Source of the DNA: an uncultured Methanosarcinaceae archaeon
Lineage (GTDB): Archaea > Halobacteriota > Methanosarcinia > Methanosarcinales > Methanosarcinaceae
Direction of reading: 5' to 3'
Assembly (NCBI GenBank): GCA_963847185.1
Contig: CAWJYV010000004.1
Span: forward strand, 160,001 to 224,000
DNA length: 64,000 bases
A program made the position numbers and the translations under genes. The notes under the pieces are model-generated. The model searched no databases. It saw only the letters and a list, made by a program, of their open reading frames with translations, and was not told the origin of the DNA. The stretch's first letter is position 1. Each line of letters begins with the position of its first letter. This document shows positions 25,997-47,215 of the stretch, piece by piece.

Positions 25997-26393
25997 AAGC
26001 ATCATTAAGCCCAAAAAAGCTGTAAATAAAAAATAGTTTCCAATTTCATACACTATATACCAAAAGGATTTCATCTTATAAACAATTTATACGCCCGGCG
26101 ATATAGACTGATAACTCTTCCTTCCTATGCTCTAATTCATCTATATTATTTTTCATGCTGTCAGCCGTACAATCTAAAAAGAACTGGAAAACCGTGATTT
26201 TTGCAGATTTAAACGGAATATTCAAGTTCAAAATTATAACTTAATATTTTATATAAAGTAGACATTATTATATAGGATGGGAAACTATTAGGATTTAGAA
26301 TCTTTGTTCTCTTTTAAGATTCATGTTTGGGATATTTCTAGAGAAAGGTTCTTGAAATAAATTATTATTGGAGTTATTTGGGGGGGAATCAGT

Positions 26394-26621
26394 ATTAAAA
26401 GAAGGAGTAGGACTGATATAGCCGTAGATATTTTAAGAGTAGCAATGAATGGAGCAAAGAAAACTCATATTGTATATGAGGTAAATCTAAACTTTAATAT
26501 TGCCCAAAAATATCTGGAAATGTTGAACGAAAAAGAACTCATCAGGCAAGAAAAAGGGCTTTTCATTACCACTGAGAAGGGAAAGTTTTTCCAGGAAATG
26601 GCTAAACAAATAAAGCTTTAA
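26394..26621 (+). CDS. winged-helix transcriptional regulator lacking a canonical start (ATT in frame)
   Basis: IKRRSRTDIAVDILRVAMNGAKKTHIVYEVNLNFNIAQKYLEML...TTEKG; G7 tract upstream. Confidence 0.75.
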   Translation: MKRRSRTDIAVDILRVAMNGAKKTHIVYEVNLNFNIAQKYLEMLNEKELIRQEKGLFITTEKGKFFQEMAKQIKL

Positions 26622-26675
26622 CTTACTTTCTTATTTTTAAATTTTTATAATTATACTTTTTGTAATTTTTTGTAT

Positions 26676-26809
26676 GTAATGTATCTAAAGTTCTGTAAAA
26701 TCACAAATCTCAAGAAGTTACTGGGACGAAAATACTGTTTCAGAAAAATCTAATTTCATATTGTGAGAAAAAATTGACTTCAAACTTACAGCAAATTTGC
26801 GACACTGCC
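26676..26809. mobile_element. degenerate copy of the MITE at 1129-1263
   Basis: Shares CTGTAAAATCACAAAT...AAAATTGACTTCAAA..TACAGCAAATT.GC.ACACTGCC. Confidence 0.7.
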
Positions 26810-26955
26810 ATATTCGCAATGATACTTTTTCTCAGAAGGTATATGGCACTATCTACAAATTTTAGACTATTTGATTTAAGATTTTTACCTTTTTAGATCT
26901 TTTTTGTGTTTCAGAGTTTTACTCCATCTATAAAAAAAATCTACTATCAGGTATA

Positions 26956-27069
26956 GGACTTACGCAGTTGAGGTTCAAAATCAAGGCCAATAGACATTAC
27001 TGCCAAATCTATGATTTAGACAGTTGAAGGTTCAACGCCTTTGATTATTCAGTTCAACTGCGTAAGTCC
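26956..27069. mobile_element. 114-bp MITE (GGACTTACGC termini), copy 2, inverted relative to copy 1
   Basis: GGACTTACGCAGTTGA / TCAACTGCGTAAGTCC. Confidence 0.8.
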
Positions 27070-27282
27070 GAAGGTAATCATATCAAGTTCGGAAATGATT
27101 TTTGAATAATATGTATTGAATAATATGTGCTATGCATGTAGTTTAAATTAATCCGATATGAACCTTACTTCCATTAAGCAAACAAAATATATTTTTTCCT
27201 GCCGACAATAATTCCAATAAATAAAAGTATTAGATTAAATAATGAGATATTTATTTATACTTAGATGCTCTAATTATATATT

Positions 27283-27367
27283 TGACGATGTTCGAGCATT
27301 TATCCCCTCGATTCGTCATTACACCATAAAGCTGTCGGGGTATTCATTTCCCCGACACACATTTTTA
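27283..27367 (+). ncRNA. candidate two-hairpin small RNA
   Basis: TATA-like box at about 27250; stems GACGA..TCGAG/CTCGA..TCGTC and TGTCGGGG/CCCCGACA followed by T6. Confidence 0.4.
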
Positions 27368-27636
27368 CAGTTCAGATTTTCTGCTTAAAGAATCTTCCTA
27401 ATATTTAGAAGCCATTTTATATCCGCACTATAAAGCGAGACCGTGCTTCTTGTTTTATCGCTATTTATATCGGCAGAATCCACCAAAACGTATTCACAAT
27501 CTATTTTTTCTGATTAGATCGAATATATAACATATATTAACAATGTCTACTATTAATCGCACAAGAAGTGCAATGTTCACTTCCGTAAACCCATAAAATC
27601 AAAACCCAGGCATACCTCATAGCCTGGGTTTAATTT

Positions 27637-27767
27637 CATTTGGATTCGGTTAAGGAACAAAAAGTCAAAAAATGCTATTTTTTATGCAATATCTAAGAGA
27701 ATTCTCTTTGAAAATCACTATACGTGGTATTCGAAGTTGTATAAAATTCGTTAACCGAATCCAAATG
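27637..27767. mobile_element. 131-bp IS4/ISH8-type MITE with 10-bp target duplication
   Basis: Perfect 17-bp TIR CATTTGGATTCGGTTAA; GGTTTAATTT at 27627-27636 and 27768-27777. Confidence 0.85.
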
Positions 27768-28180
27768 GGTTTAATTTAACTTCATTGATCATCGGTTAAG
27801 GATTTCTTTCCTTCTCCTGTTATTCTTTTTTGAATCCACCCTTGATTTCTTATTCAAACTATTCTTTTGTAGATTTAAAAAGAGTATTTTTCAGCGGTGA
27901 TAAGTTTTGCTTTATCGGATAATTAGCTGGAATTAGAATTTCAGGCATTTTTATCTACTCCAAACCCTGATCACAAAGTATTCTCTCATTTAAGAGAATG
28001 TATGCTTTATTTTCACAGAAAACATTTATATATATTAAATGCTAAGTGTATGCGTATTGAAAATAAAGAGACGTATAATCATCTGTTATTAAAAACCAAG
28101 TTTTGTTTTTAATCAAAGAGTTCTATACAATCTTATTTTTAAACAATTAACTAAAAAATCAAAACCAAGGTGAAACAAAA

Positions 28181-28369
28181 ATGGCTTTTAATGACAGAAA
28201 CTTCAGAGGAAACTCTAATTTCGGCGCTCCCAGAGAAATGCACACTACAACCTGTTCTGACTGTAATGTTGAGACGCAAGTACCTTTCAAACCCGATCCG
28301 GAAAGACCGGTTTACTGCAGAGAGTGTCTTCCTAACCACAGGACACCCAGAGAAAACCGCAGATACTAA
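28181..28369 (+). CDS. CxxC-x17-CxxC zinc-ribbon small protein, copy 1
   Basis: CSDC-x17-CREC with VPFKP...RPVYC; AGGTGA RBS. Confidence 0.9.
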   Translation: MAFNDRNFRGNSNFGAPREMHTTTCSDCNVETQVPFKPDPERPVYCRECLPNHRTPRENRRY

Positions 28370-28607
28370 GTGTTATTTGTGTAATTGAGTTTACATCAAC
28401 ACTTATTTCTTTTTCACTTTTTTAAATACATCTTAGGCTCAGAATATACTTTTTTCTTAATCTAGAGCTCTTGCAGAATTAGAAGGAGCGCTTTGCAGAG
28501 TCTTTTTGATCGAAGTACTTCTTTTTGGTGGAATCTATTTAAATTTATCATACGTTAAACTCTTTTACCTATAGAAATTTAAGCAAAAAATCTTATACTC
28601 GAGATCT

Positions 28608-28824
28608 GTGAAGTTCAAAATTATCCTTGAGGAAGACTGGGAAGCCGGGGGATTTGTTGCCAGTTGTCCAGGCGTACCGGGCGCTTTTCTCAGGGCGACA
28701 CAGTAGAAGAAGCTGTTGAGACTTTAAAGAAATAATTCAGGCTTGCTTAGAATCACTGGCAGAAGATGAACTGCAGGAATGCATTGGGAAATCCTACTGC
28801 AGAGTGGTTGATGTGGTTGCTTGA
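28608..28824 (+). pseudogene. HicB-like antitoxin, frameshifted
   Basis: VKFKIILEEDWEAGGFVASCPGVPGA / SQGDTVEEAV in shifting frames. Confidence 0.75.
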
Positions 28825-29044
28825 ATGTCGGGACTTCCTATTATTTCAGGGATGCAGACAATTAAAGCCTTTTCGAAAGCTGGCTTTCTCACCGGCAGGT
28901 GGACGATCACGTTGTACTTAGAAAGGAAGGTTCGAAAGTTACGTTGACCGTTCCGAAGCACAAAGAACTGAAACCGGGTCTTTTAAGAAATTTAATAAAT
29001 TTTCAGGACTTGCGGTAGAAAAATTCGAAGCTCTTTTGAAATAA
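28825..29044 (+). pseudogene. HicA-like toxin, frameshifted
   Basis: MSGLPIISG..IKAFSKAG / HVVLRKEG..LTVPKHKELKPGLLRNLI. Confidence 0.75.
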
Positions 29045-29261
29045 GTTTTTTGGGTTTGGCCATTCATTTTATCGAGAAAACTTCATTTATTAAGGTATTT
29101 TTCTAAATTCGTTCTAACTAGATTCTAATGTATATTTCCTGTCAACGGACTGGCCTAAATACCGGAAATTTGCGAACTTTCGCAGCTTCAGGAGAGAATT
29201 CGAAGAACCGATTAATTTTCACAATTTGCAGATCTTTCTAGAAAAGACTTTCTTGTTCTAA

Positions 29262-29849
29262 TTAATTTCTTGTAGCCGATAAAAGGTAGGCTTTTCTGCT
29301 ACTCGGACTGAGTAACGAATCGAAAACCGCGTCTTTTATATAGATTATATTGAAAAGAGGCGAAAAAGTACTCTCTATATCAGCTTTTGAGACCCTTCTT
29401 GGCAGCTCGTATTCTCCCGGTTCCTTATCGGAGAAACACAGCATGAAATATTTGCCGCCTTCCTTGAGTACCCTGTGTACCTGTCGAGCAAAGACTGGCC
29501 TCTCCTCGTCCGTCATAACGTGAAACAAGCCGGAATCAATGATAATATCGAATTCTCCCTCCTTGAAAAGCTGATCCATCTGCAGTACATTTCCTACGGC
29601 AAAATTTACCTTAATATGACGCTCTATGGCCTTTGCCTTTGCCTCGGAGACAGCCTCTTTAGCAAGGTCTATACCCGTGACTTCACAGCCACTCATAGCT
29701 AGCATTATAGCATTCTCACCCCGGCCACACCCTATATCCAGAGCTCGGCCAGGCTTGATCTCTCCACTTTGTATAAGAGCCTGAAAAGCGGGCTGGGGGT
29801 AACCAAGATCCCACGGTGGCGTACCCTTATATACTTCATCCCAGAACAA
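29262..29849 (-). CDS. class I SAM-dependent methyltransferase
   Basis: PPWDLG.PQP, ALDIGCGRG, DSGLFH; GGAGG RBS. Confidence 0.9.
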   Translation of the reverse strand: MFWDEVYKGTPPWDLGYPQPAFQALIQSGEIKPGRALDIGCGRGENAIMLAMSGCEVTGIDLAKEAVSEAKAKAIERHIKVNFAVGNVLQMDQLFKEGEFDIIIDSGLFHVMTDEERPVFARQVHRVLKEGGKYFMLCFSDKEPGEYELPRRVSKADIESTFSPLFNIIYIKDAVFDSLLSPSSRKAYLLSATRN

Positions 29850-30574
29850 TTTTCTCCTCCTCGCAGCTAAAAATATTAAGTTACAATTTGATATATGGTT
29901 AACGATAAACTTTATTTTAATAACTTTCTGGGCGACCTTTTTTGGAACTTCTAATTATTTTTGACAAAAACTTTGAAACACCGACCGGTTTTTTTAAATA
30001 AAAACCGGATTAATGCATGTGAAAAAGGTTATTTTTTCCCTAATTTGCGGATCTTTGTAGATTTGGAAGAAGTACTTCACAGGACCTATCTTTTAGACCA
30101 AAGTGATTCTTTTCCGTTGAGGAACGTTTTAGAATTATGGTGAAATGTCAAAACTGGACTGATGAATACTAACGAAAATCTCCCCCTATAAATTTCAGTT
30201 AAAATATATTTTTTCCTACTCTCGGCTCGCCCGAATCTAAAGAGAACTAACAAATCCGTGGTATTTGCAGATTTGGAAAGAGCGCTTTTCAGGGTCGATA
30301 AGTTTTGCTTTATCGGATAATCAGCCAGAATTGGAATTTCAGGCGTCTTTGTCGTTCCATATACCTACCTCATAAAGTTTTTCCTCATTTAGAAGGTGCA
30401 CTTCTATAATTATAGGAAGATTTATATATTTTAATTGCTATGTATGTGTGTTGATAAATAAAGATCCGTATAATCATCTGTTATTAAAAACCAAGTTTTG
30501 TTTTTAATCAAAGGGTTCTATACAATCTTGTTTTTGAACTATCAACTATCCGCTAAAGCGGAGGTGAAACGAAA

Positions 30575-30757
30575 ATGGCTTTTAATGACAGAAATTTCAG
30601 GGGAAATTCCGGAGGCTTCCGCGGTAACAGCGGTCCAAGGGAAATGACAAAAGTGACCTGTTCTGACTGCGGTGTTGAGACCGAAGTACCTTTCAAACCC
30701 ACCGAAGGCAGGCCAGTATACTGCAGAGAATGTCTTCCTAACCACAGGAAATTCTAA
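30575..30757 (+). CDS. CxxC-x17-CxxC zinc-ribbon small protein, copy 2 (most divergent)
   Basis: CSDC...VPFKPTEGRPVYCREC. Confidence 0.9.
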   Translation: MAFNDRNFRGNSGGFRGNSGPREMTKVTCSDCGVETEVPFKPTEGRPVYCRECLPNHRKF

Positions 30758-30973
30758 AGATAATATGCGTCAGACGTTAATTTTGCATTAAACTTACATT
30801 ACGCCTGACTCACTTTTTTGTTTTTTTGCTTATTCTCTTTGTTTCTTTATTTGTTTCCACCTCATGCGGCAGAGAAAGTAAGAACAAACCGGCATTAATA
30901 ATGAGAATCTGTGTGAATTATTCAATACTAAACTTCTAAAAAATAAAACAAAATCTATTAAGGAGGAATTAAC

Positions 30974-31327
30974 CTGGCTAATTACAGAAGCACCATTAGA
31001 AAAAGAAGAGTAGGATCTACAAAACCAGTAAACTCAGGAGATACTTCTGAAGTATCCAGAGTAAGAATTCCCCGCAAGGACAAAAATGAAGTCCTGGCAA
31101 CGGTTGCAAGTTTACTCGGCTCGAAAAGAGTAACACTTCAGTGTATGGACGGGGTTGTCCGAATGGGCCGAATTCCAGGCTCTAAAAAGAAGAGAATGTG
31201 GATCCGTGAAGGCGATGTTGTCATAGCCAATCCATGGGAAATCCAGGACTCTAAAGCCGAAATAAACTGGAAATACACAGGGCCTCAGGTAGAATGGCTT
31301 GAGCGAAAAGGCTACATTAAGTACTGA
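30974..31327 (+). CDS. eif1A: translation initiation factor aIF-1A, apparent CTG start
   Basis: [29 protein letters not shown]-fold motifs; open frame extends 57 codons upstream of ATG 31145 to a CTG 7 nt after AGGAGG. Confidence 0.9.
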
Positions 31328-32099
31328 TTTAAGATATCAGAATAAAGATACCTGATAGAGGTATCTGAAATGAAGGTGTCTGAAAAGATGCCCTGAAATC
31401 TACATTCTACTTTTCTACAGAGCGTGTCTATATTGATGCGGGTAAGATCCTGCAATACAGCAGTTTATAGCAGCTTACTAATATATCCCACAAGAATAGC
31501 GGCTTACTAATATCTTACAGGGATTTATAATTATTAAAGAAAGATACTAAATTTCTTCTATTCTCTCTTATTTCTACTTTAATATAGAGCCTATCCCAAA
31601 ACTACTTTTTATATCCAAATTCATAAGAATTTCAGAATACTTTCCCGATTAGCACTCGGTTAATCATTTAAAAATCGAAATTCTAAGAGATGATTTTTGA
31701 GTTTTAGGACCAACTCTATAATTTCCTGCCGGCGATCTACCCTAATCTTCCTCGAATCCTTTTGTAGAATAGGTAAATCGAAAATCTATGATGTTTTGCT
31801 GCTTGAGAAAAGGGTATTTTGCGGAGCCGATCAGTTTTATTATTTTCCGATAAATTTCCCTTGGGATTATCTTTAAGAACAACAATGGATTTTTTGCATA
31901 CCTTCTATATATTTACCATTAGATTACTATTGGAAAGAACAAAAATGATAAGGAGCATCAATTAACTTCCAGATCATTAAAACGATTGGTCTAAGCTTTC
32001 TAATAACAAAAGTTTCATCATGGCCGACAACATATTTTTTACATAACAAAATACGTTTACAAATTATTCCTGTGATTAAAGTAACCTTATGCAAAAAAT

Positions 32100-32639
32100 G
32101 TGACATCCATGAAGAATAAGAATACCTGCTTTCTTAGGAGATGTACGGCAGTGTCTGATGAAATTAAAAAGCAAATTGAAGACTTGATTTCTGAATCCAA
32201 TAATCTGATGGAGTCTTTAAGTAAGTTTTTTTATTCGGTACCCATTCAATACGCTCCATTCCTTGACATTGGGCCCTTTACGATATCTGATCTGCCTAAA
32301 ATGTGGGATTACGATCTTGACCCCAATATCAATATCTATGAGGGAGAGCCAGTACCGCTCAATTACAAATGGTTTAAACTGACTAAAGACCAGTTTCTTG
32401 AACAGGATGAATTGTTTAGAAGATACATAACATGGGCTTCAAGTGCCAGAAACCTGATTGAAATATTTTCGCCAGAAAAATTAGCTTTTTTTAATGAAAA
32501 GTCCGAAATTGTCAGAAAATGGATTGAAATGAGCGAACGATTACCGTCGGATGACAATGTAGAAATGTTTTTGAGATTTAGAAGACACTTCGCAAGCCAG
32601 CAACATATTGTTTCCGCTTTATTGGAGAAAATTGAGTAA
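32100..32639 (+). CDS. hypothetical protein
   Basis: 179-aa ORF between two repeat copies; AGGAG before GTG at about 32151 suggests a later start. Confidence 0.6.
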   Translation: MTSMKNKNTCFLRRCTAVSDEIKKQIEDLISESNNLMESLSKFFYSVPIQYAPFLDIGPFTISDLPKMWDYDLDPNINIYEGEPVPLNYKWFKLTKDQFLEQDELFRRYITWASSARNLIEIFSPEKLAFFNEKSEIVRKWIEMSERLPSDDNVEMFLRFRRHFASQQHIVSALLEKIE

Positions 32640-33094
32640 CAAATATTTTTTAGCCAAAATATAAATGAATTTTTAGTGTCATTTAATATGGAAGAAAATC
32701 TTTCTCCTCCGTTCAATTCAATTGAAATATATTTTTCCTGCCATCGGCCTGTCCCAATCTAAAGAGAACTAAAGAATCCGTCTGTTTTGCAGATTTATAT
32801 GATCATTTGCAGGGGCGATAAATTTTGCTTTACCGGATAATTAGCCTGAATCAGAATTTCAGGCACTTTTATTGCTCCATAAACCTTCGCTATAAAGTTT
32901 TTTCTCATTTGGAAGGTGCACTGCCATAATTATAGAAAGATTTATATATTTTAATTGCTATGTATGTGTGTTGACAAATAAAGATCCGTATAATCATCTG
33001 TTATTAAAAACCCAGTTTTGTTTTTAATCAAAGAGTTCTATACAATCTTATTTTTAAACTGTAACTAAAAAATCAAAACCAAGGTGAAACAAAT

Positions 33095-33283
33095 ATGGCT
33101 TTTAATGACAGAAACTTCAGAGGAAATTCTAATTTCGGCGCTCCCAGAGAAATGCACAAGACAATATGTTCAGACTGTAAGACTGAGACAGAAGTGCCTT
33201 TCAAGCCCGATCCAGAAAGACCGGTTTACTGCAGAGAGTGTCTTCCTAACCACAGGACGCCCAGAGAAAACCGCAGATACTAA
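33095..33283 (+). CDS. CxxC-x17-CxxC zinc-ribbon small protein, copy 3
   Basis: Same protein sequence as copy 5. Confidence 0.9.
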   Translation: MAFNDRNFRGNSNFGAPREMHKTICSDCKTETEVPFKPDPERPVYCRECLPNHRTPRENRRY

Positions 33284-33415
33284 GTGTTAAGTGTTATTTC
33301 TGTAATTGAGTTTACATAAACATTTATTTCTTTTCCACTTTTTAACTATACAATAAATACGGAATTATTTTTTAACTTGTGATCTTTTACAGCTTGTGAA
33401 GATGGCTTTCCAAGG

Positions 33416-33521
33416 CTAGTGTCTCAAAAATTTAGTTCTGAGTCCTCATAATTAAGAAAGGGACTACTAATAAGGTATTGTTAAGTATTAATGCCCAGTA
33501 ATTAAATTGTCATGACACTAG
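33416..33521. mobile_element. MITE-like element with CTAGTGTC/GACACTAG ends
   Basis: Short inverted termini only. Confidence 0.4.
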
Positions 33522-33665
33522 TCAGTTTTACCCTTTATTGATAAGTCGTATTAAGGGACTGTTTTAGAATAAAAGTGAAAACCTGTTAATTGAATCTTGT
33601 TTTCATTGGAGCTGTCCAAAACTGGACTGCTAAACAAAAAAGTGAAGCTCTTTGACCTATTCTTA

Positions 33666-33705
33666 TTCAATTCAATTCAATTCAATTCAATTCAATTCAA
33701 TTCAA
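33666..33705 (+). repeat. (TTCAA)8 microsatellite
   Basis: Eight perfect units directly before a repeat core. Confidence 0.95.
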
Positions 33706-34369
33706 TTATATTTTTTCTGCCATCGGCCTGCTCAAATCTAAAGAGAACTAAAAAATCCGTGATCTTTGGAGATTTAGAAGGAACACTCTGCAGGTTTTTT
33801 TGAATAAGCGATTCTTTTCCTCTGAGAGGAATTTTTCTGATCCAAGCGACGTTTTTAGGTTAATTCTGGATTAATAATAGCTATCAGAAACCTCCGTTTT
33901 CAGCATGATTCACAATCCTCGAACTTTTCTCAAGGAGTGTGAGGATTGGGGGAATTTTAAACTGCCGAAAATGAGGATTTCTTAACTGCCGTTGACAATT
34001 GCAAAGAGCAAAATATGAAGGATTTCATAAAATGAACACGCATCAGTAATAAGTGCAATCGTGGTAAATGTAAAAAGATTAGTTACAGTGAGTAGCTGAG
34101 AATATCGATAAACTCCTAAACTAGGTATCAATAATGAAAAGTTGAAAGAAAAGGATGAAAGGAATGGTCATTTTAGTGAAAAATCCTCTCAAAATTGAAG
34201 TATATTAATGAAGTTCAAATTTTGGCGCTGAAAATTTACGATGGCTAACCATTAGCTACTTTTACGACTCTATCTTATCTGATTAATCCCTTATCCCATA
34301 AGGCTAAAATGCCCCTTCCTCAAAACTCTAAGCTTTGTGAAGAGTTTAGGGAGGGGAAGTTGACTCGCT

Positions 34370-35431
34370 TTATTCATCCAGAAGAACAACAGGTTTGATC
34401 AGATCTCTTGGTTTTTCTTTCATGAGCATGAGAGCCTTTTCCATGTTGTCGAATCCTTCGAATACGTGGGTGGCCATTTTTTCGGGCTTTATTCTTCCGT
34501 AAGTACATAGGGCTGCCATTCTTTCCATTCTCAGACGACCTCCGGTTGTCAGACCACCACGTATGTCTTTTTGAGACATACCCACCCCCCATTCAATACG
34601 TGGAATAGGAAGTATGTCTCCGGTTCCGTAGTAATTGACGTTTGATACCGTGCCTCCGGGCTTTACAATTTTGATTGCATCTGAAATTGTGTTTTCATTC
34701 CCTCCTGCTATGATTACAGAATCCACACCTTTTCCATTCGTCTTTTCAAGAATCTGTTCAACAAGTCCACCTTTTCGGTAATCAACAATTTCAGACGCTC
34801 CGTATTCCATAGCAAGATCAACACTGACTTCCCGACTTCCTACTGCAATGAGCCTACCTGCGCCAAGAATAGATGCACCTGCCACTGCCATCAGACCAAC
34901 AGGACCAATTCCTATGACTGCAACTGTAGAGCCAGTTTTAATATTTGCCATTTCTGCACCCTGTATTCCAGTAGTTGCCATATCTGATAGCATGACAGCC
35001 TGTTCGAGGGGCATTCCTTTTGGAAGTAGAGCTAAATTCATGTCTGCATCATTTACATGGAAATATTCTGCAAAGACTCCACTTTTGAAGTTTGAAAACT
35101 TCCATCCACCAAGCATTCCATTTGAGTGCATAGGTACTCCATCCTGTGCCTCTATGGATCGCCAGTCAGGGGTAATTGCAGGGACAATTACTTTATCGCC
35201 TGGTTTGAAGTTTTTGACCTCTGATCCGATTTCTTCTATAACACCTACAGCTTCGTGTCCTAAAATCAAGTTTTTGCGATCTCCAAGCGCACCTTCCCAG
35301 ACAGTATGAATATCTGATGTACACGGCGCGACCGCAAGAGGCCTCACGATTGCATCATATGGTCCTGCTGAAGGTCTTTCAGCATCAATCCAGCCTACTT
35401 TCCCAATTTCAAGCATTGCAAATCCTTTCAT
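34370..35431 (-). CDS. adh: NADP-dependent secondary (isopropanol-type) zinc alcohol dehydrogenase
   Basis: MKGFAML, PCTSDIHTV, GHEAVG, GIGPVG, AVGSR, KPRDLIKPVV; closely resembles the Thermoanaerobacter/Clostridium secondary ADH family. Confidence 0.88.
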   Translation of the reverse strand: MKGFAMLEIGKVGWIDAERPSAGPYDAIVRPLAVAPCTSDIHTVWEGALGDRKNLILGHEAVGVIEEIGSEVKNFKPGDKVIVPAITPDWRSIEAQDGVPMHSNGMLGGWKFSNFKSGVFAEYFHVNDADMNLALLPKGMPLEQAVMLSDMATTGIQGAEMANIKTGSTVAVIGIGPVGLMAVAGASILGAGRLIAVGSREVSVDLAMEYGASEIVDYRKGGLVEQILEKTNGKGVDSVIIAGGNENTISDAIKIVKPGGTVSNVNYYGTGDILPIPRIEWGVGMSQKDIRGGLTTGGRLRMERMAALCTYGRIKPEKMATHVFEGFDNMEKALMLMKEKPRDLIKPVVLLDE

Positions 35432-35804
35432 ATTATTCCACCAACCTTTTCAAAATAATTATTTTTCAATGTTTTTTATAGTAACCCGCATATTAATCTG
35501 CTGTAGTGGTATTTATAATTACTAAGGATGGAAACTTGAATTTTATTTCAATTCAATTAATTAAAATATATTTTCCCTGCTATCTGCTTGCCCTAATATA
35601 AAGAGAACTCAAAAAACCCGTGATTATTTGTAGCGTTAGAAAGAGCACTTTGCAGAATTGATAAGTTTAACTTGTCTCTTTCATTGGATAGCACCAAGAA
35701 TCCAAAATTTAATCAATCAATTCGTAGAATCTATATAAGATCTCGATAAGATCTCGATTCAGTATAAAAATAAATATTCAAAGGTTCGGACAGGAGTATT
35801 AATT

Positions 35805-36007
35805 ATGCTTATACAATTATCCGGGAATCTCTTGAGATAGCAAAATATGAAATAATAGATGACAAAGAACCTTATTATATGGAGAAGTTCCCGAACTTGA
35901 AGGTGCATGGATTACAGGCAAGAACCTTGAAAGGTGCCAGAAAATATAGAATAAGTTATTGATGAATGGATTGCTATCAGATTGAGAAATGAGCTCTGTC
36001 TGCCTAG
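35805..36007 (+). pseudogene. HicB-like antitoxin remnant
   Basis: AKYEIIDDKEPY / GEVPELEGAWITGKNLERCQ / VIDEWIAIRLR in shifting frames; AGGAG RBS. Confidence 0.7.
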
Positions 36008-36120
36008 ATTTTGCAATTTTCTAACTATATAAATACCCTGAAGACCTCATGCCGATCTAAGGAAGTTAATGAACGGAATTTTGTAGGCCAGGTCGTGAGC
36101 TCCTTTCAACAGATTTTGAA

Positions 36121-37899: not shown

Positions 37900-38342
37900 C
37901 TTGCAAAGATATCCGTAAATTTCAATTTTTCTATTAGTTTTTGCCTTCAGCCAAAAACCATATGAAAATACAAACTGTTGAAATTATTGAGTTATGTTTG
38001 TTAAGAAAAGCGAAATTGAAAACCCGTGATTTTTGCAGCTTTGGAGAAAGCGCTTTTCAGGGTCGATAAATTTTGCTTTATCAGTTAATCAACCGGAGTT
38101 AGAATTTCAGGCACTTTTATCGCTCCATAAACCTTCGCTATAAAGTTTTTTCTCATTTGGAAGGTGCACTGCCATAATTATAGAAAGATTTATATATTTT
38201 AATTGCTATGTATGTGTGTTGACAAATAAAGATCAGTATAATCATCTGTTATTAAAAACCAAGTTTTGTTTTTAATCAAAGAGTTCTATACAATCTTATT
38301 TTTAAACCGTAACTAAAAAATCAAAACCAAGGTGAAACAAAT

Positions 38343-38531
38343 ATGGCTTTTAATGACAGAAACTTCAGAGGAAACTCTAACTTCGGCGCTCCCAGAGAAA
38401 TGCACAAGACAATATGTTCAGACTGTAAAACTGAGACAGAAGTGCCTTTCAAACCTGACCCAGAAAGACCGGTCTACTGCAGAGAGTGCCTTCCTAACCA
38501 CAGGACACCCAGAGAAGACCGCAGATATTAA
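38343..38531 (+). CDS. CxxC-x17-CxxC zinc-ribbon small protein, copy 4
   Basis: One residue different from copies 3 and 5. Confidence 0.9.
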   Translation: MAFNDRNFRGNSNFGAPREMHKTICSDCKTETEVPFKPDPERPVYCRECLPNHRTPREDRRY

Positions 38532-39037
38532 GTGTTATTTCTGTAATTGAGTTTACATAAACACTTATTTCTTTTCCACTTTTTTTAAATATATCTTAGG
38601 CTCGGAATATACTTTTTTCTTAATCGAGAGCTTTTGCAGAATTAGAAGGCACACTTTGCATGAGTCTTTTTTGATTGCAGTGATCTTTTCTTTGGGAGGG
38701 CTATTTTCAGATTAAAGTTAACTCTTCTTCCAAGTTCAATTCAACTAAAATATATTTTTCCTGACATCGGCCTTCTCCAATCTAAAGAGAACTAAAAACC
38801 CGTGATTTTCGCAGCTTTATAAGGGGCACTTTGCAGGGCTTCTTTAGATTAAGCGATTCTTTTCCTCTGAGGGGGATTTTTTGATTCAAAGCGACGTTTT
38901 TCAGGTAGTTATGGGTAAGGAAAAATCTTCATGAATTGGACCGCTGAATAAGAGGTGAAAATTCCTCCTTATCCCTTCCAGGCAACTCAAAGTCATCTTC
39001 CCAACAGATATCTTCAGCAGGAATCAAGCTATTTCAA

Positions 39038-39800
39038 TCATCTGGTTTCAAGAACCCATTTCCAGAGAGGAACATAACTGATATCATTTTCCTTTTTTTC
39101 GAAATTCTTCGTAAGCAAGATTAACCTGGAAGCTTTCTCCCCAAAATATTCCTTGAATTCCAGAAGAGCATTGATTTCTCCCTGTCTTATGTGATCTGTA
39201 CAAGTGCAGTTTATACCTGTGAGTGCTCCATCTATGCCTTTGATGACAAAATCTACTTCTCTTTTTTCTTTCCAGTAAAAGAATTCTACTTTTCTCCTCT
39301 TCAACTCTACAAAAGCCAGGTTCTCTGCAAGCCTTCCTTCATCAGCAGAAAAGGTGAATGCCGCTGAATTTCGAAGCCCATTATCAATGCAGTAGACCTT
39401 TTTGGGCATTCTGATTGAGATTGAATCTTTGACTGAGTATGAAAAGAAGTTCAACTGGTATATCAGGTAGGCCTGTTCTAGATAAAGCAGGTATTCTTTC
39501 AAGCTGTTGACTGAGAGCCCGATGGCATTCGAGATTTTTGAATAACTCAGGAGAGTGGAGACATTTGATAGGGAATAATTCGCAAGTTCGATCAGTTTTG
39601 CGCTTTCCCGGATATTGCAACCCACCACTATATCCCGAAGGAGGATGCTGTTGAAGTACTCGGTTAGCCGGAGGTGATTGATATCCATATCATCTTCAAG
39701 GACAACTTCGGGAAAACCTCCTTTGAAGAGATACTTGTTAAAATAGTGCAGAATTTCGTTTCTCTGAATATCAGGATCTTTTAATTCAAAACCCTCAAAT
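39038..39800 (-). pseudogene. AAA+ ATPase/DUF4143 protein, N-terminal ATPase half deleted
   Basis: GGFPEV upstream of the ORF-track start; KKVYCIDNGL, LAENL, EVDFV; no Walker A present. Confidence 0.8.
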
Positions 39801-40002
39801 TTGTGTGTGGAGTATTTATATCTTTCATTATAATGATGATTTTAGCTATAAATACCGTCATTACAATGACGGTTATATAAATGAAATTAGATTTGAATCT
39901 TGTAATATCGGGATGTTGAACAAGAAAGGAGATTTCTTATTTTGTCCTCCAATTCAGTTAAAATATATTTTTCCTGCCGACGGTCTGCTTACATCTTTTC
40001 CG

Positions 40003-40745
40003 GGTATTGTTAACTAAATATAGTTAACTCTTTATTTCTGTATTTCATTAAGAGAAGAACTGAGTACTTTAGCATTTCAAGACTCTTAGTATAACACTTT
40101 GTCTTTCGCCTCAATCTTGCCAGAAAGTGCCTCAATATGCTGTTATATCCTTCAACAGTATACGTTTCTGCTTTGGATTGAGTATGAATAGTTTCTGGAA
40201 CAAACTCTGCATATGCCTTCCAGTGATCAGTCATCACTTTTTCAATCTCTTTTTTCCTTTAATTTTTCCCAGAGTTTTTGTCCAGTTTCTGTTCCTCTAC
40301 TACCAAAAGAGCAGTTGATGAACTTTTTCCCAACTCTATCAACAGCAATCCAGATCCAGCAATATTTTTTTTGTTACCGATGTAAGTGTGCATCTCATCC
40401 ATTTCAACAATAGATATCTCATTTTCGCTTTTTAGGTCCTCTAACTCCTGACCAAATTTCTTTATCCATTTTTGGACAGAAACATGACTTACTCCCAAAA
40501 ATCGCCCTATTGAGCGAAACCCTAATCCTTCAAGATAGAGTTGCAAAGCCTGTCTCTTAACAGAAGCGGAGATAGCAGTTGATTTTAGCTCTACTGAATA
40601 GTTATATCCACAATCACCGCATTTGTAGCGTTGACGGCCATCAACTTTACCATTCTTTTTATGATTGGAGACTCTTACATCTTGGACAGTTCATGCAAGA
40701 AATATAATTTCTCATAATATATATCAGTATTTAGATACCAATGCC
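40003..40745 (-). mobile_element. IS1-family element, full length, InsA frameshifted
   Basis: TIRs GGTATTGTTAACTAAATA / TATTTAGATACCAATGCC; DEMHTY, A8 slippery site, TDHWKAY, EGYNSILRH. Confidence 0.92.
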
Positions 40746-41240
40746 TTTTTTTCCTTTAATTTTTCCCAGAGTTTTTGTCCAGTTTCTGTTCCTCTGCTAC
40801 CAAAAGAGCAGTTGATGAACTTTTTCCCAAATCTATCAACAGCAATCCAGATCCAGCAATATTTTTTTTGTTACCGATGTAAGTGTGCATCTCATCCATT
40901 TCAACAATAGAGATCTCATTTTCGCTTTTTAGTTCCTCTAGCTCCTGACCAAATTTCTTTATCCATTTTTGGACGGAAACATGACTTACTCCCAAAAAAC
41001 GCCCTATTGACCGAAATCCTAATCCTTCAAGATAGAGTTGTAAAGCCTGTCTCTTAACAGATGCGGAACTAGCAGTTGATTTTAGCTCTACTGAATAATT
41101 ATATCCACAATCAGAGCATTTGTAGCGTTGACGGCCATTAACTTTACCATTCTTATTATGATCGAGACTCTTACATCTTGGACAGTTCATCAAGAGATAT
41201 AAGTTCTCATAATATATGTCAGTATTTAGATACCAATGCC
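40746..41240 (-). mobile_element. second, partial IS1 copy in tandem (intact InsA, truncated InsB)
   Basis: MNCPRC...YKCSDC + HTH; similar to 40250-40745; one TIR ending at 41240. Confidence 0.9.
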
Positions 41241-42853
41241 CTTTTTTTTATTATAATCTTGATATTTTCAGTTACCTTAGGTATAAATGCTATCAATTTC
41301 TCCATTTTAAACAAAGTTTCTGCCTCCTCTGATATCTCTTCAACCGGTAGTGGCTATAATGACTCAGTTTGGGAAGAAAACGATATTGGATCCAACTTTG
41401 TAGCACAAGATAAAATAGTAATTGGAGAGGGACGCAACGATGGCATCAAAAGGGTATATTCTGCAGACGGCGTTTCGGGCTCTGGTACTATATATGAATA
41501 TAGTTTTAATAACGGTGAATGGGAAAAGAGGAGTATTATAGAAGATAGCTCAAACGATTCAACAGTTGTTCAAGATGTTAATACGGTTTATGGACTAGAG
41601 ATTGGAGATTTTCGCAATGACACAATAAATAGAATTTATGCTTCTGGTTATAATTTAGCGGAATATAACTTTGATTCCGGCTCATGGCTTGGGTATGTGA
41701 AAGGTCCTGATCAGATTCAGTGGACTAATGATATGGTTTTGGGGGATGTCGCAATGATGGCTACATAAGGATGTATGTAGCTGGATGGGGAGAAATTTAT
41801 GAAGTTTCCTATAATCACGGGAATTGGGATTCAATAAAAATTGATACTGGAGGACAGCGAGTAGAAGAACTGTTCGTTACTGATGGTAGGAACGATGGAG
41901 TTTTCAGACTATATGCTGCAATAAATGAGCATATTTATGAGTATACTTGGTCAGGAAGCGAGTGGGAAACAGTTGATTGCAGTGCGATAGGTAACGAGCC
42001 TTATATTTTGTCCTGCGATATGTATGGAGGCGATGCAAGAAATGATGGTAAAAATAGGATTTATCTGGTTGCTGGAGGCCTTTATGAACTGTCTTATAAT
42101 GCTAAGAACTGGGATAGTATTGTAATCGCAGATTCAAATAAAATTGGCGCAGTTACTATTGGTATTGGAAATGACGGGATAAATCATCTCTATACAGGAA
42201 GCTCAACAGGCATTGGTGAATACACATTTAGTAACGGAGCATGGAAAAAGACAGCAAATTATGATACCAAATATAAAGTCAACGATCTAACAGTTGGACA
42301 AGGCAGAAACGATGAAGTAAATCACATTTATGCAACTAGTGACGACAACCACGTTTATGAATATAGCTATACTGGAGGGAAAATATCGAATGAAGATAAC
42401 GTCGTAAATAATGGAACGAAAACAACACCAAAGGAAAATGTGTATCTGATAACAGCTACATTAATAATAGTATCTATATTAATTTTCATTAGATCAAAGT
42501 TAGAAGATAACCTGCTCAAAAATAGAATATTGTACATTATTGCGGGTATTCTAGTAGTTGTTATCTCGGTTGTTACATTCTTAATGGATATTATATCGAA
42601 TGTTAAACTAGTTTTTATCTTAATTCTTATATTAAATATCATCTTAACAGCAGTCATATCTCATTCAAGAAAACATAAGCAGAAGAAGAAGGATGAAAAA
42701 CAAGGAGAGAATAACGAAAAAGAAGAAAAAGCAATTGAAATCGAAACAAAATCGCAAGAAAATGTTTCCGTGAAAACTGTTACATTGGAATTATTAATGA
42801 ATATTATTGGAAACATTATTGCGGGCTTAATAATTGCTTTGATACTTCACTAA
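41241..42853 (+). pseudogene. membrane-anchored repeat (probable beta-propeller) surface protein, start removed by IS1 and frameshifted at about 41750
   Basis: About 7 G(D/E)GRNDG..R(I/L)Y...YEY repeats; residual hydrophobic signal; C-terminal TM helices. Confidence 0.7.
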
Positions 42854-43088
42854 ATTCTACTAAAACGGTTATTTCAATAAATTATTCATGTCGCACTTAT
42901 GTAATCTTATTTTTCTCCCAAAATTATCGAATTTAATCTATTATATTTTCCCTGCCGGCGGCCTGCTTACATCTTTTCCGAAATCTACCTCGAATACGTT
43001 TGTTAAGAAAAGTGTAAGAAGAGTGAAATTAAAAATCCTTCGATATGTCTATCCAATTTCTTCCTTATACTTTATTAAGACATAGAAA

Positions 43089-44021
43089 TCAAACATCTTT
43101 TTTCCCATGCTCGGAGAGATATTGTTCAACAGCACGTTTTGAACTATGCCACGTTTTTCCGATTTTTACCGCATCTAGGAGCCCCTGCCTGGCTCGCAAG
43201 CTGAGGTATTCCTGAGAATAAGGAGTTTCAATGGCAAGTTCTTTTAGAGGCAGTAGTTCGTCGTTTCCTCCTGAGATGGAGAGGTAGAGAGTTAGGTTTT
43301 CATCCACAGCTTTTGCAATGAAATTAGCAAATGCTCTCAGGTTTCCAGCATCTGCAGCCCTAAGAAATTTATAATATTTTCCCCTGTCCTCTTTTTTGAG
43401 CACGACAGGAGGATAATCCCTTGAGATCAAATACAGGTTTGTGAGAAGCCGGGCTACTCGTCCGTTTCCATCGCTGAAGGGATGAATTTCAACAAATCTG
43501 TGATGCAGGAATGAAGCTATCTCAATGGGATGCGCCTTGCTTTGAGCTATATTTTCAATTAACTCATCCATGAGTTTCACTATCTTCGACCAATCAGGAG
43601 GAGTCTTTACTGCACCTGCTATTCTCACATTTCTTGTGCGGTATCTTCCGGCATCTTCAAGTATGCCGATGGTTACAATTTCGTGGATTTCCTGAATCGT
43701 AACATGGTCTATTGCACATTTTTTCTTTGCCAGCTCTTCCATCCGGTCATAAGCTTTTGCATTATTGTTTGCTTCAAGATGCTCCCTGAGAGATTTCCCC
43801 CCAATGGTCAGACCTTCTTCCAGAACAAGTTTTGTTTCCTGAAGTGTGAGCGTATTGCCCTCTATTGCATTGGAGTGATAGGTATGAACTAACCTCATCT
43901 CTTCATGCAGCCTTGCTAAAGCATCTGCTGGAACTGGCCTAATTGAGTCTAGCTGTTTCATTTTTTCATTTATTCGTGCAAGGAGTTCTTCTCGAATCAG
44001 AGTAGTATCGGTATTGGCCAT
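43089..44021 (-). CDS. Fic family protein with C-terminal HTH
   Basis: HPFSDGNGRVAR, inhibitory SNAIEG motif, C-terminal LKELA..YSQEYLSLRARQG..AVKIG.TW. Confidence 0.92.
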   Translation of the reverse strand: MANTDTTLIREELLARINEKMKQLDSIRPVPADALARLHEEMRLVHTYHSNAIEGNTLTLQETKLVLEEGLTIGGKSLREHLEANNNAKAYDRMEELAKKKCAIDHVTIQEIHEIVTIGILEDAGRYRTRNVRIAGAVKTPPDWSKIVKLMDELIENIAQSKAHPIEIASFLHHRFVEIHPFSDGNGRVARLLTNLYLISRDYPPVVLKKEDRGKYYKFLRAADAGNLRAFANFIAKAVDENLTLYLSISGGNDELLPLKELAIETPYSQEYLSLRARQGLLDAVKIGKTWHSSKRAVEQYLSEHGKKDV

Positions 44022-44518
44022 AATTTAATGTATCCGATATGTGTCATGTAATATATATCGGTATCGGCAAGTTTTTGAGTTATCCGATACAACTTTTTCC
44101 CCTATACTCCATTTCAATTAAAATATATTTTTTCCTGCCGGCGGTCTGCTCAAATCTCCCCTGAATACGTTTGTTAATTTTAGAGAAATTGAAAAACACC
44201 GTGATTTTTGCAGATTTAGAAGGAGCACTTTGCAGGACCGATAATTTTTGTTTTATCTATCATTAACCAAAATTCCAATTTCAGGTACTTTCATCGCTCC
44301 ATTAAACCTTCCCCATAAAGTTTTTTCTCATTTGGAAGGTGCACTGCCATAATTATAGAAAGATTTATATATTTTAATTGCTATGTATGTGTGTTGACAA
44401 ATAAAGATCAGTATAATCATCTGTTATTAAAAACCAAGTTTTGTTTTTAATCAAAGAGTTCTATACAATCTTATTTTTAAACTGTAACTAAAAAAACTAA
44501 AACCAAGGTGAAACAAAT

Positions 44519-44707
44519 ATGGCTTTTAATGACAGAAACTTCAGAGGAAATTCTAATTTCGGTGCTCCCAGAGAAATGCACAAGACAATATGTTCAGACT
44601 GTAAGACTGAGACAGAAGTGCCTTTCAAGCCCGATCCAGAAAGACCGGTTTACTGCAGAGAGTGTCTTCCTAACCACAGGACGCCCAGAGAAAACCGCAG
44701 ATACTAA
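44519..44707 (+). CDS. CxxC-x17-CxxC zinc-ribbon small protein, copy 5
   Basis: Same protein sequence as copy 3. Confidence 0.9.
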   Translation: MAFNDRNFRGNSNFGAPREMHKTICSDCKTETEVPFKPDPERPVYCRECLPNHRTPRENRRY

Positions 44708-45170
44708 GTGTTAAGTGTTATTTCTGTAATTGAGTTTACATAAACATTTATTTCTTTTCCACTTTTTTTAAATATATCTTAGGCTCGGAATATACTTTTT
44801 CTTAATCTAGAGCTTTTGCAGAATTAGAAGGCACACTTTGCATGGTCTTTTTTGATTGCAGTGATCTTTTCTTTGGGAGGGCTGTTTTCAGATTAAAGTT
44901 AACTCTTCTTCCAAGTTCAATTCCACTAAAATATATTTTTCCTGCAAGCGGCCTTCGCCAATTTAATGATTGCAAAAAATCCGTAATTTTTGTAGCTTTA
45001 TAAGGGGCACTTTGCAGGTCTTCTTTAGATTAAGCGATCCTTTTTTGAAGGGGAGTTTTTTTCTGATTAAAATAAAGAATTTTCAACTAGCTCTACGCAT
45101 AAAATTTGTTAGCTAAGTTCAATGAAGATTATTTATAGCATTTTTAAGCAAATAAATAGGGGGTTACTTT

Positions 45171-45830
45171 CTGGAGATACCAAAATTTAAAAGACTACCA
45201 GGACATATTGCTATAATACCGGACGGCAACAGAAGATGGGCTCTATCTAGAGGCTTAGAAAAACATGAGGGATACGACAATGGAATAATTCCAGGCTTGG
45301 AATTATACGATATATGCGTAAAAATTGGAATAGGCGAAGTTACTTTTTTTGGATTTACTCAGGATAACACAAAAAGGCCTCAAGTTCAAAGAAAAGCATT
45401 TGTAGATGCCTGTATAAAATCAGTTAAAGAACTTTCTAAACTTGACGCTGAACTACTTGTAGTAGGGAATACTAATTCGGATTTGTTTCCGAAAGAGCTA
45501 CTTGCATATACAAAGAGAACTAAATTTGGAAAAGGTAAAATAAGGATAAATTTTTTGGTAAACTATGGCTGGTATTGGGATTTAATTCATGCATTTGAGA
45601 ACTCTTCAGATAGTAAAAAAATGGCAGAGAATATCGCATCAGCAGAGATTCCAAGAATAGATTTACTTATTCGCTGGGGAGGAAGACATAGACTCAGTGG
45701 GATGCTTCCAATTCAAACGGTATACTCAGATATATATGTAGTCGATGAAATGTGGCCAGATTTTAAGCCAGAACATCTATATAAAGCATTAGAATTTTAT
45801 CAAGACCAGGATATTACACTGGGTGGATAA
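45171..45830 (+). CDS. uppS: cis-prenyltransferase (UppS family), apparent CTG start
   Basis: In-frame upstream HIAIIPDGNRRW catalytic motif; FTQDNTKRP, DLLIRWGGRHRLSG, WPDF. Confidence 0.85.
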   Translation: MEIPKFKRLPGHIAIIPDGNRRWALSRGLEKHEGYDNGIIPGLELYDICVKIGIGEVTFFGFTQDNTKRPQVQRKAFVDACIKSVKELSKLDAELLVVGNTNSDLFPKELLAYTKRTKFGKGKIRINFLVNYGWYWDLIHAFENSSDSKKMAENIASAEIPRIDLLIRWGGRHRLSGMLPIQTVYSDIYVVDEMWPDFKPEHLYKALEFYQDQDITLGG

Positions 45831-46156
45831 TTGACTTTCTTGCCTTTCACCGATTCTTTAAAATTGATTTTTTTTGGGCTATTTTCGGATTAAGTTGAAA
45901 ATCTGTTAATCGAGTCTTGTTTTCATAGGAGCCATCTAAAACTGGACCTCCAAATAGGAAATGAAATCCTTTCAATCACCCTAACTCATCTGAAATATAT
46001 TTTTCCTGCCGGCGATCTGCTTAAATCTACCCCGAACACATTTGTTAATTTTAGAGAAATTGAAAAACGCCGTGATTTTTGCAGATTTATAAGGGGCACT
46101 TTGCAGAGCTTCTTTAGATTAAGCGACTCTTTCCTTTCAGAGGAATTTTTTCTGAT

Positions 46157-46498
46157 TCACATTTGATCCAGTATGCGTTTGATATCCGGTTTTGCTTCTG
46201 GAATACCTTCTTTAACGGATAACCAAACTACCTTCAGATTTACCCCAAAAATAAGCGTGGATCAATTTGTCCCGGATGCCTGCAAGGTCTTTCCAGGGAA
46301 CTGAAGGATGTTTTTCGCGTACTTCAAAAGGGATATTTTTTGCCGCTTCGCCAATGATTTCCAGAGTTCTGATTACTGCGAATTGGGTTTTTCGGTCGGA
46401 TGCAAACTCTTCGAATGTCAAGTTGTTGACAAATTCTTCTGCAATTTCCATTGCATCATAAATATCCTGGACATAGTCTTTTACTTCGCGAATCTCAA
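46157..46498 (-). pseudogene. HepT/DUF86 HEPN ribonuclease toxin, frameshifted
   Basis: AVIRTLEIIGEA, RDKLIH (RX4H); frameshifts near the start and after HAYF. Confidence 0.8.
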
Positions 46499-46505
46499 TC
46501 CCTCT

Positions 46506-46811
46506 TCATACGGCTTCAACTTCATCCAGAATGTGTTTGCCTATATTTGGTTTTAAGGCATCTTTCATAACCAGATCAACCTTAACGCCAAGAGCTTCCG
46601 AAAGGTAGTTTTCAAGGTTAACAAATTTAAAAATAGTAGGAGTCTTACTGAATTCCACAAGCACATCCAGATCGCTTTCCGGTTTCTGTTCTTCCCTAAT
46701 ATAGGACCCAAAAACCCCCAGGTAACTGACGTGGTATCTCTCTCTAAGCTCCGGGAGCATTTCGTGGAGTTTCTGGATGTAGACTTCAACTTTTTTTCGG
46801 TTTTCAGGCAT
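46506..46811 (-). CDS. MntA-type minimal nucleotidyltransferase antitoxin
   Basis: FGSYIREEQKPESDLDVLV (GSx10DxD), KVDLV. Confidence 0.9.
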   Translation of the reverse strand: MPENRKKVEVYIQKLHEMLPELRERYHVSYLGVFGSYIREEQKPESDLDVLVEFSKTPTIFKFVNLENYLSEALGVKVDLVMKDALKPNIGKHILDEVEAV

Positions 46812-47215
46812 TTATTCAGGCTCGTTGCTTTCCCTTCTGGTATGTCATAGTAATTTGCTGTTGTAGTATTTATAATTACTAAAGAGGAAAATGGAATCTG
46901 TGTCTTGAATCATATTCAATTGAAACACCTTTTCCTGCCGGCGGTCTGCTTAAATCTACCCCGAATACGTTTGTGAATATAAAGCTAAGAAAAGCGAAAT
47001 TGAAAAATCTGTGATTTTTCAGCTTTTAGGGGCACTTTGGGCTGTATTTTATATAGCGATCTTTTTACTGGAAGGTGTTTTCGAATTAAAATGAAAAACT
47101 GTTAACTGACGATTGTTTTCAGGAGATGTTATAAAAATAGATTACTACATGAGAGTTCTTTGTTGGTCATCTTTAAAGGAATTTTGTCTAATAGTCCTAT
47201 TCTCTTAAAATCTTT

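Follow-up and report, generated by a model that had tools for sequence, protein, structure and literature searches.

A one-directional array of a conserved non-coding repeat divides accessory genes into movable cassettes in Methanosarcina

What kind of locus places whole, unrelated genes between copies of a single repeat, and how do those genes move? The question arises from a 64,000-nucleotide stretch of DNA (the window) from an uncultured Methanosarcinaceae archaeon (GenBank assembly GCA_963847185.1, contig CAWJYV010000004.1, positions 160,001 to 224,000), in which an earlier note had described a repeat-delimited gene array and proposed an integron-like cassette system. We find that 21 kb of this window form an array of one conserved non-coding repeat, with all copies running in one direction, by which accessory genes are divided into movable cassettes, and that the array is not an integron.

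We searched the complete set of contigs of the window's genome (G000; 4.04 Mb, 10 contigs) with two profiles, one of 42 nt for the core, derived from ten copies in the window, and one of 275 nt for the full unit, derived from four "empty" units that stand in tandem in a related genome. The 275-nt profile gave 19 matches at E ≤ 1, all on the plus strand between 26.0 and 47.2 kb of the window and none elsewhere in the genome. At a threshold of E ≤ 10, the core profile returned 28 matches: 13 reach E ≤ 0.05, every one of them on the plus strand at 27,185-46,959, and the remaining 15 have E ≥ 0.98. At E ≤ 1e-3, the window holds 16 unit matches, nine near-complete (spanning profile positions ≤31 to ≥171) and seven partial, which, with three weaker remnants at the left edge (26134-26215, 27185-27206, and 29127-29157), fits the roughly ten near-complete and ten partial copies that the earlier note had counted; its claim that all copies share one orientation and none lies outside the 21 kb holds across the genome. 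Over five genomes, 102 unit matches likewise show one shared orientation per locus. A chance or assembly artefact is rejected by the whole-genome profile results and by recurrence in other species of the genus. The units, 200 to 275 nt long, are spaced 0.2 to 4 kb apart with whole genes between them, which rules out an array of clustered regularly interspaced short palindromic repeats (25-40-nt repeats, regular short spacers).

The same searches bear on the idea that the unit is a small non-autonomous element, similar to a miniature inverted-repeat transposable element (MITE), that inserts beside its own copies. Its size (≈200-275 nt) and copy number would fit, and tandem empty copies exist, but we regard this explanation as very improbable. 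Ordinary MITEs lie scattered on both strands, the pattern that the earlier note had set against its own proposal; here, 0 of 19 matches fall outside the array and all are on one strand, and across genomes every copy sits in one or two loci, in one orientation, with none dispersed. A dyad scan of natural units found no terminal inverted repeats, and 2.9 million viral contigs contained no copy of an exact 24-nt core pattern. A true dispersed element of the same genome behaves quite differently: the separate MITE-like repeat of ≈140 nt at window 31573-31723, which recurs at least 16 more times, on both strands and across eight contigs, and replaces the left part of the repeat unit at 31722-31827.

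A full unit measures ≈272 nt in G012 and ≈205 nt in G004, where several units follow one another in tandem without intervening genes. Along 55 full units from five genomes, conservation is uneven. The best-kept part is the core (profile 37-88), made up of TTCA..TT, a ten-base AT palindrome, and a GC-rich block containing CCTGCCGGCGG. It is followed by a conserved block ACGTTTGT near position 95, a block GAAATTGAAAAAC-CCGTGATTTTT at positions 118-150 that forms an A-run/T-run dyad (A5-N7-T5 at 127-150, with T-runs on both strands), and a block with two TTTGCAG-like motifs reaching position 176. Short direct repeats within the unit are visible by eye. Past position 176 there are two continuations, flank A, which leads into a micro-gene module, and flank B, both as first described. 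Truncated units start or stop recurrently at ≈104-112, 133-135, 142-144, 153, 173-176, and 200-275, so that cargo is placed at several sites in or between units rather than at one insertion point. As a separate observation, a CAATT-type pentanucleotide microsatellite at window 33656-33719 has expanded from the left arm of a unit core.

The unit sequence is constrained. Arbitrary pairs of units from G012, G014, and G006 are 78 to 83% identical over profile 37-176, and third codon positions of carB in the same species are 60 to 65% identical; by this comparison of sequences, the unit is under selection. The nearest relative of a unit lies in its own genome for 32 of the 55, which makes concerted evolution within genomes weak and argues that homogenization is not the main cause of the conservation. 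We interpret the units as non-coding. In G012 the core is crossed by a 31-codon frame, but this frame has no conserved start, single-base indels are frequent, and in the short window variant it ends early. RNAalifold found no consensus base pair on either strand of the 55 units, and single-stranded DNA (ssDNA) folds of four window units, both strands, have z-scores from -1.7 to +0.75. No Rfam family matches in the window, and together with the missing consensus structure this led us to reject a structured small-RNA gene family. The dyad scan found 189 dyads against ≈125 expected from shuffles, mainly A-run/T-run and other AT-rich dyads, and no dif-like 11-6-11 site in the core; in the accessible text on archaeal XerA/dif (PMC8371274), dif consists of two 11-nt inverted arms and a 6-nt spacer.

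From left to right, in window coordinates, the array contains the following parts.

26134-26215, plus strand: leftmost repeat remnant, a short variant, left array edge (repeat-family copy 26170-26210 and sequence reading)
26445-26621, plus: cargo, winged-helix protein (HTH_45; Pfam)
27185-27206, plus: core remnant (core profile, E 0.05)
28181-28369, plus: CxxC-x17-CxxC zinc-ribbon micro-gene copy 1, with flank A before it at 27866-27955
28575-29018, plus: degraded hicBA pair (HicA piece 28866-29018 frameshifted; hicB pieces without Pfam match)
29262-29849, minus: cargo, S-adenosylmethionine-dependent methyltransferase (Pfam)
30165-30294, plus: repeat unit, profile 8-173, then flank A (full-unit profile)
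30359-31416, plus: two-gene cassette, micro-gene copy 2 (30575-30757) and aIF-1A paralogue (30977-31327)
31722-31827, plus: repeat unit, profile 57-174, left part replaced by the dispersed element
32100-32639, plus: cargo, 179-aa protein, no family match
32688-32814, plus: repeat unit, profile 11-173, then flank A and micro-gene copy 3 (33095-33283)
33687-33873, plus: repeat unit, profile 31-252, flank B (full-unit profile)
34370-35431, minus: cargo, zinc alcohol dehydrogenase (ADH; Pfam)
35539-35655, plus: repeat unit, profile 22-171 (full-unit profile)
36276-37899: two-gene cassette, methyltransferase (36276-36839, minus) and TrmB-family regulator (37066-37899, plus)
37999-38062, plus: partial unit, profile 109-173, then flank A and micro-gene copy 4 (38343-38531)
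38632-38939, plus: partial unit (profile 142-234) and, directly after it, a full unit (profile 26-275)
39038-39688, minus: cargo, DUF4143 ATPase fragment, 216 aa
39918-40006, plus: unit cut at profile 93 by fragments resembling an insertion sequence (IS; 40003-41240)
41178-42853, plus: cargo, two open reading frames (ORFs; 196 and 360 aa), no family match
42942-43045, plus: partial unit, profile 51-142 (full-unit profile)
43089-44021, minus: cargo, Fic-domain protein
44104-44238, plus: repeat unit, profile 31-174, then flank A and micro-gene copy 5 (44519-44707)
44814-45090, plus: partial unit (profile 142-234), then a unit (profile 27-242)
45297-45830, plus: cargo, truncated UppS-like ORF, 177 aa
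45946-46200, plus: repeat unit, profile 1-254 (full-unit profile)
46157-46811, minus: cargo, toxin-antitoxin (TA) pair, HepT (interrupted; ORF 46212-46451) and MNT (46506-46811)
46891-47121, plus: last repeat unit, profile 16-254, right array edge (full-unit profile)

The order of these genes was compared between species. We clustered ORFs shared between arrays and removed 11 shadow-ORF clusters from 35, leaving 24 families. Orientation relative to the repeat is constant in all 24, and order is permuted: the window reads methyltransferase (MTase2)-TrmB-DUF4143-Fic-MNT, whereas G014 reads MTase2-TrmB-MNT-Fic-DUF4143. Constant orientation with permuted order cannot be produced by inversions. An invariant cargo order, which would have spoken against shuffling, is thus not what we see, either among species or among metagenome contigs. 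Cargo proteins are 80 to 96% identical between species (Fic 87-90%, TrmB 92-93%) versus 91 to 95% for argG, carB, and carA, and Fic and the 177-aa UppS-like ORF recur at 84 to 86% in an array of the sister genus (G067). Such housekeeping-level identity, together with the sister-genus copies, indicates that many cassettes are as old as the genus. The gene capture suggested in the earlier note is in this respect weaker than in integrons.

Where the rearrangements break was read from Logan contigs of four metagenome runs, placed on window 27151-47150 at ≥92% identity. The contigs are from unknown strains 92 to 99% identical to the window; the best run covers at most 27% of the sampled words of window 37200-47150, on which basis none of the runs could be assigned to this strain, and uncovered stretches were not counted as evidence. 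RNA run X19 consists of metatranscriptome contigs, which carry no information on starts, ends, or strand. Contig 20 of run X2 (1533 nt, ≈98% identical) jumps from 38766 to 42958, runs through Fic, and jumps again from 44128 to 46930. Further X2 contigs leave the MNT cassette at 46973 and 47010 and continue at 38815 and 38802, ahead of DUF4143, and runs X1 and X5 add other adjacencies. Unit coordinates were assigned to 22 joints: a main table lists 15, of which 13 were used and two short within-gene skips omitted, and a second table lists nine, all of them used; seven more are unlisted. Joints with less than 95% identity, or with a short side, may derive from other organisms. Both ends lie in units for 15, one end for two, and neither end for five. 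Of these last five, three connect paralogous copies of the micro-gene or of the IS, one (34237 to 34370) omits 132 nt immediately below ADH, and the fifth (27805 to 34370) is left unexplained. Twelve of the 15 joints with both ends in units are in register, with switch points at profile ≈21-40, 35, 55, 66, 79-84, 105-129, 120-141, 125-154, 131-148, 136, and 198-210; the best-supported joint, 38766 to 42958 in X2, falls exactly in the GC-rich center of the core. The repeat therefore delimits cassettes and recombination occurs within it, as had been proposed, and breakpoints lie predominantly on the repeat rather than off it.

The array extends well beyond this genome. A 141-nt query taken from the window (44100-44240) found the unit in 21 of 24 other species of the genus; the 16 genomes searched in other families of the same order had none. 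In a sample drawn across the family, 18 of 19 species of the genus and six of six of the sister genus (g23) had matches, two further genera gave one weak match each, and 82 genomes of twelve other genera gave none. Among the complete genomes listed or retrieved, the matches form one locus on one strand, with the exceptions of G014 and G150, which have two loci each. The exact 24-nt core pattern occurs in 19 stretches among 185,579 species (one genome each), 15 of them in records titled Methanosarcina or Methanosarcinales. The other four (L014, L016, L022, and L032) are 1.5- to 3.1-kb contigs of three bacterial-labelled metagenome-assembled genomes (Lentisphaerales, Cloacimonadota, and Syntrophomonadaceae), probably through mis-binning. 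The array adjoins argG-carB-carA in G004, G012, and G014; in the sister-genus genome G067, 19 units lie on a single strand and the array ends 3 kb from argG; and in the repeat-less G008 and G018, of the same genus, argG is present with no unit within 20 to 40 kb. Judged by its sequence distribution, the array is old and genus-wide. The window contains no tRNA, which rules out a tRNA-linked integration site.

Could the units instead be mainly expression elements (a promoter, bidirectional terminator, insulator, or small-RNA gene) in an ancestral gene cluster with differential loss, recombination being a by-product? The A5-N7-T5 dyad at profile 127-150, with its T-runs on both strands, is positioned where minus-strand cargo ends, the core contains an AT palindrome, and the units are constrained in sequence; moreover, cargo that matches housekeeping genes in identity, with Fic and UppS-like copies in the sister genus, indicates long vertical inheritance. 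A generic module, however, would be expected at other genes, yet there are no copies outside the array, and neither a conserved RNA structure nor an Rfam match was found. TATA-like elements stand upstream of ADH, MNT, and the micro-genes; those of ADH and MNT lie between the core and the start codon, so that the core is rejected as the sole promoter of minus-strand cargo. Order also differs among contigs 92 to 99% identical to the window, too fast for loss alone, which cannot permute genes in any case. We therefore consider this explanation unlikely.

A second alternative is a dedicated site-specific system, an independently evolved analogue of integrons, in which an unlinked recombinase recognizes the core or a multi-block att-like site and excises and re-inserts cassettes. 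The ≈50-nt core is strongly conserved and found in the genome only in the array, the exact 24-mer is restricted to Methanosarcina-type records among the species genomes searched, and unit identity exceeds the neutral level. The position of the best-supported joint and the constant orientation of all 24 families point the same way, and the internal direct repeats resemble multi-site protein-binding regions. The recombinase itself is harder to place. In 15 array-bearing genomes, a search with PF00589 (tyrosine recombinase) gave no match on the array contig or within 90 kb. Among nine complete genomes, the nearest match is ≈96 kb from the array (G062), and the complete, array-bearing G096 has no match at all; G000 has only a 21-bit sub-threshold fragment 138 kb away. 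PF00239 (serine recombinase) has no match in the array-bearing G000, G012, and G014, and there is no recombinase ORF in the array, in agreement with the earlier note. The core also contains neither a dyad-symmetric site nor a hairpin, switch points spread over ≈190 nt, and cargo junctions occur at many unit positions. On balance, we think a dedicated system doubtful. The same low standing applies to its fuller form, in which the core and accessory blocks would make up a complex site of ≈140 to 270 nt, and an unlinked factor would excise, re-insert, and perhaps capture cassettes at the argG platform, owing nothing to IntI/attC.

The evidence leans instead to the homology-driven of the two routes first suggested, with switch points between profile ≈21 and 210. 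The account that we favor, with about evenly balanced confidence, is recombination in register between functionally constrained units by the general homologous machinery. In its favor are switch points that are scattered over the unit and in register, empty units in tandem, an orientation that does not change, and no recombinase linked to the array. Accessory genes would be embedded in or between units as one- or two-gene cassettes, with some units empty in tandem, and in-register recombination between units would lose, duplicate, or re-order cassettes while keeping their orientation. This could occur by unequal crossing-over between chromosome copies, by a cassette popping out as a circle and re-entering at another unit, or by replacement with DNA from a related strain. 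The polyploidy of Methanosarcina may help such exchange. The tandem empty units of 272 nt (G012) and 205 nt (G004) resemble products of unequal crossing-over. We infer that the enzyme is the general homologous-recombination machinery, and also that selection maintains the units because they act in a sequence-specific way, as transcription signals or as the target of a bound protein.

Several points weigh against this account. Homologous recombination leaves the first entry of unrelated genes between units unexplained, and cargo-unit junctions fall at several profile positions (≈93, 104-112, 133-135, 142-144, 173-176, and 200-275). The units are more conserved than neutral DNA, and the core has no other occurrence in the genome. 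Homology by itself does not account for that sequence, and a specific protein, possibly a recombinase, may bind it. The recombinase search covered the tyrosine and serine families, and a different enzyme encoded elsewhere may act. The switch points come from contigs of unknown strains at ≥92% identity, in which mosaic similarity could blur a fixed crossover point. Neither an excised circle nor a live rearrangement was observed in these data.

How does the array compare with known systems? Sedentary chromosomal integrons and clusters of attC sites lacking an integrase (CALINs), such as the VCR arrays of Vibrio, are repeat-gene-repeat cassette arrays. Like sedentary integrons, this array occupies one chromosomal locus with many same-direction repeats (of roughly 100-plus nt) and one- or two-gene cassettes, its cargo is rich in TA genes, methyltransferases, and orphans, and its order and content vary in close strains with breakpoints at the repeat. 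Unlike integrons, it has no IntI or nearby tyrosine recombinase, and its repeat has no attC-type imperfect palindrome or ssDNA fold. Integron cassettes are co-oriented, mostly promoterless, and driven from Pc, whereas here cargo lies on both strands, as the earlier note had cautioned, and some genes apparently have their own TATA-like element. Crossovers spread over the unit rather than sharing a single defined point, many cassettes are genus-old, and tandem empty units are present. Membership of the integron family, implied by the term integron-like, therefore does not stand: the tyrosine recombinase results in 15 genomes, the lack of a conserved hairpin or attC-like fold, the both-strand cargo, and the scattered switch points all speak against it.

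Other systems share single features. Minisatellite-like tandem arrays evolve by unequal crossing-over, and silent-cassette loci swap by homologous recombination; the array resembles both in its head-to-tail units, in-register exchange, copy-number change, and preserved orientation, but its repeat is non-coding and conserved across two genera, and its cargo consists of unrelated whole genes. Modules of the pdif/Xer type are bounded by short recombination sites and moved in trans by a housekeeping recombinase. They are likewise site-bounded, but the array core has no dif dyad and G096 has no PF00589 match. The accessible text on archaeal integrons (Ghaly et al. 2022, PMC9668308) describes canonical attC sites, IntI in six cases, and only metagenome-assembled genomes, of nine phyla; its main text mentions Methanosarcina nowhere, and cultured Methanosarcina genomes were already public. 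Those integrons, as described there, and this array are both archaeal gene-cassette arrays, but here the repeat is different and has no attC fold. We found no description of the array, the core sequence itself included, in the literature searched, a scope outside which lay supplements and the subscription genome papers of M. mazei, M. barkeri, and M. acetivorans.

The cargo itself was largely identified correctly in the earlier note. Pfam supports HTH_45, two methyltransferases, eIF-1A, the zinc ADH, TrmB, DUF4143, Fic, a prenyltransferase, MNT and HepT, and a frameshifted HicA piece; it does not support hicB (negative on the fragments) or the surface protein (the ORFs at 41178-42853 have no family match). 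UPF0150 has only a weak match, at 35774-35962. The HEPN stop codon placed at 46157 is reached only if a frameshift is read through, HepT being interrupted. All five zinc-ribbon micro-genes are present (60-62 codons, all plus strand); the two tested match PF23477/TIGR04272, the CxxC-x17-CxxC domain, and the other three are 87 to 92% identical to the same orthologues. In M. mazei, this family comprises eight abundant zinc-binding small proteins, according to the accessible text of PMC12704099, the main text of which contains neither the word "repeat" nor the phrase "genomic context." The micro-gene and aIF-1A cassette (30359-31416) is 82.6% identical to C10:657867-658924 of the same genome, which has four aIF-1A copies; this paralogous locus and the copy number make the cassette a redundant copy. 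A second CxxC-x17-CxxC micro-gene cluster in G000 (C10:657867-658924 and C10:675443-678071) holds two more micro-gene/aIF-1A pairs and no repeat units.

The methyltransferase (36276-36839) and TrmB genes are also adjacent in G006 and G014. The DUF4143 cargo has 216 aa versus 428 to 511 aa in relatives. The UppS-like ORF scores under the NCBIfam cut-off, and has the identical 177-aa length in G006 and the sister-genus G067 at 86 to 92% identity; judged from these sequences, it is perhaps a shortened form that still functions, not a recently formed pseudogene. Over the five genomes (the window's and four others), cargo includes methyltransferases, Fic, MNT/HepT, HicA/HicB-like and TumE-like TA parts, a DUF4143 ATPase, a HerA-like ATPase with a DNA methylase, ADH, FMN reductase, TrmB and winged helix-turn-helix (HTH) regulators, PKD and HEAT proteins, and many ORFs without a family; several cargo genes match PADLOC candidate defence families.

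IS1-like InsA fragments lie within the array at 40259-41193. The IS-like fragments at 40003-41240 and 16260-16514 include a 497-nt tandem duplication and InsA-type zinc-ribbon/HTH pieces, and the element is multicopy, because its depth is very high in the metagenome runs. Beside the array, a KAP-family NTPase in two ORF pieces (49348-50070 and 50114-50590) lies between two paralogous HEAT-repeat proteins (47216-48754 and 50800-53076), whose repeats have a period of 108 nt; the two HEAT proteins have homologues at or in the arrays of G006, G012, G014, and G067.

The main genetic model methanogens belong to Methanosarcina, and a conserved, recombination-prone platform on which defence, TA, and orphan genes are stored and reshuffled would add a new element to the plasticity of archaeal genomes. 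A non-coding core that is strongly conserved and confined to this locus points to a DNA-protein interaction. In practical terms, the array could serve as a natural landing pad for engineering and as a strain-typing locus for methanogen populations of digesters and sediments. It would also show that an integron-like architecture, with genes between repeats, kept orientation, and permuted cassettes, can arise without an integron integrase.

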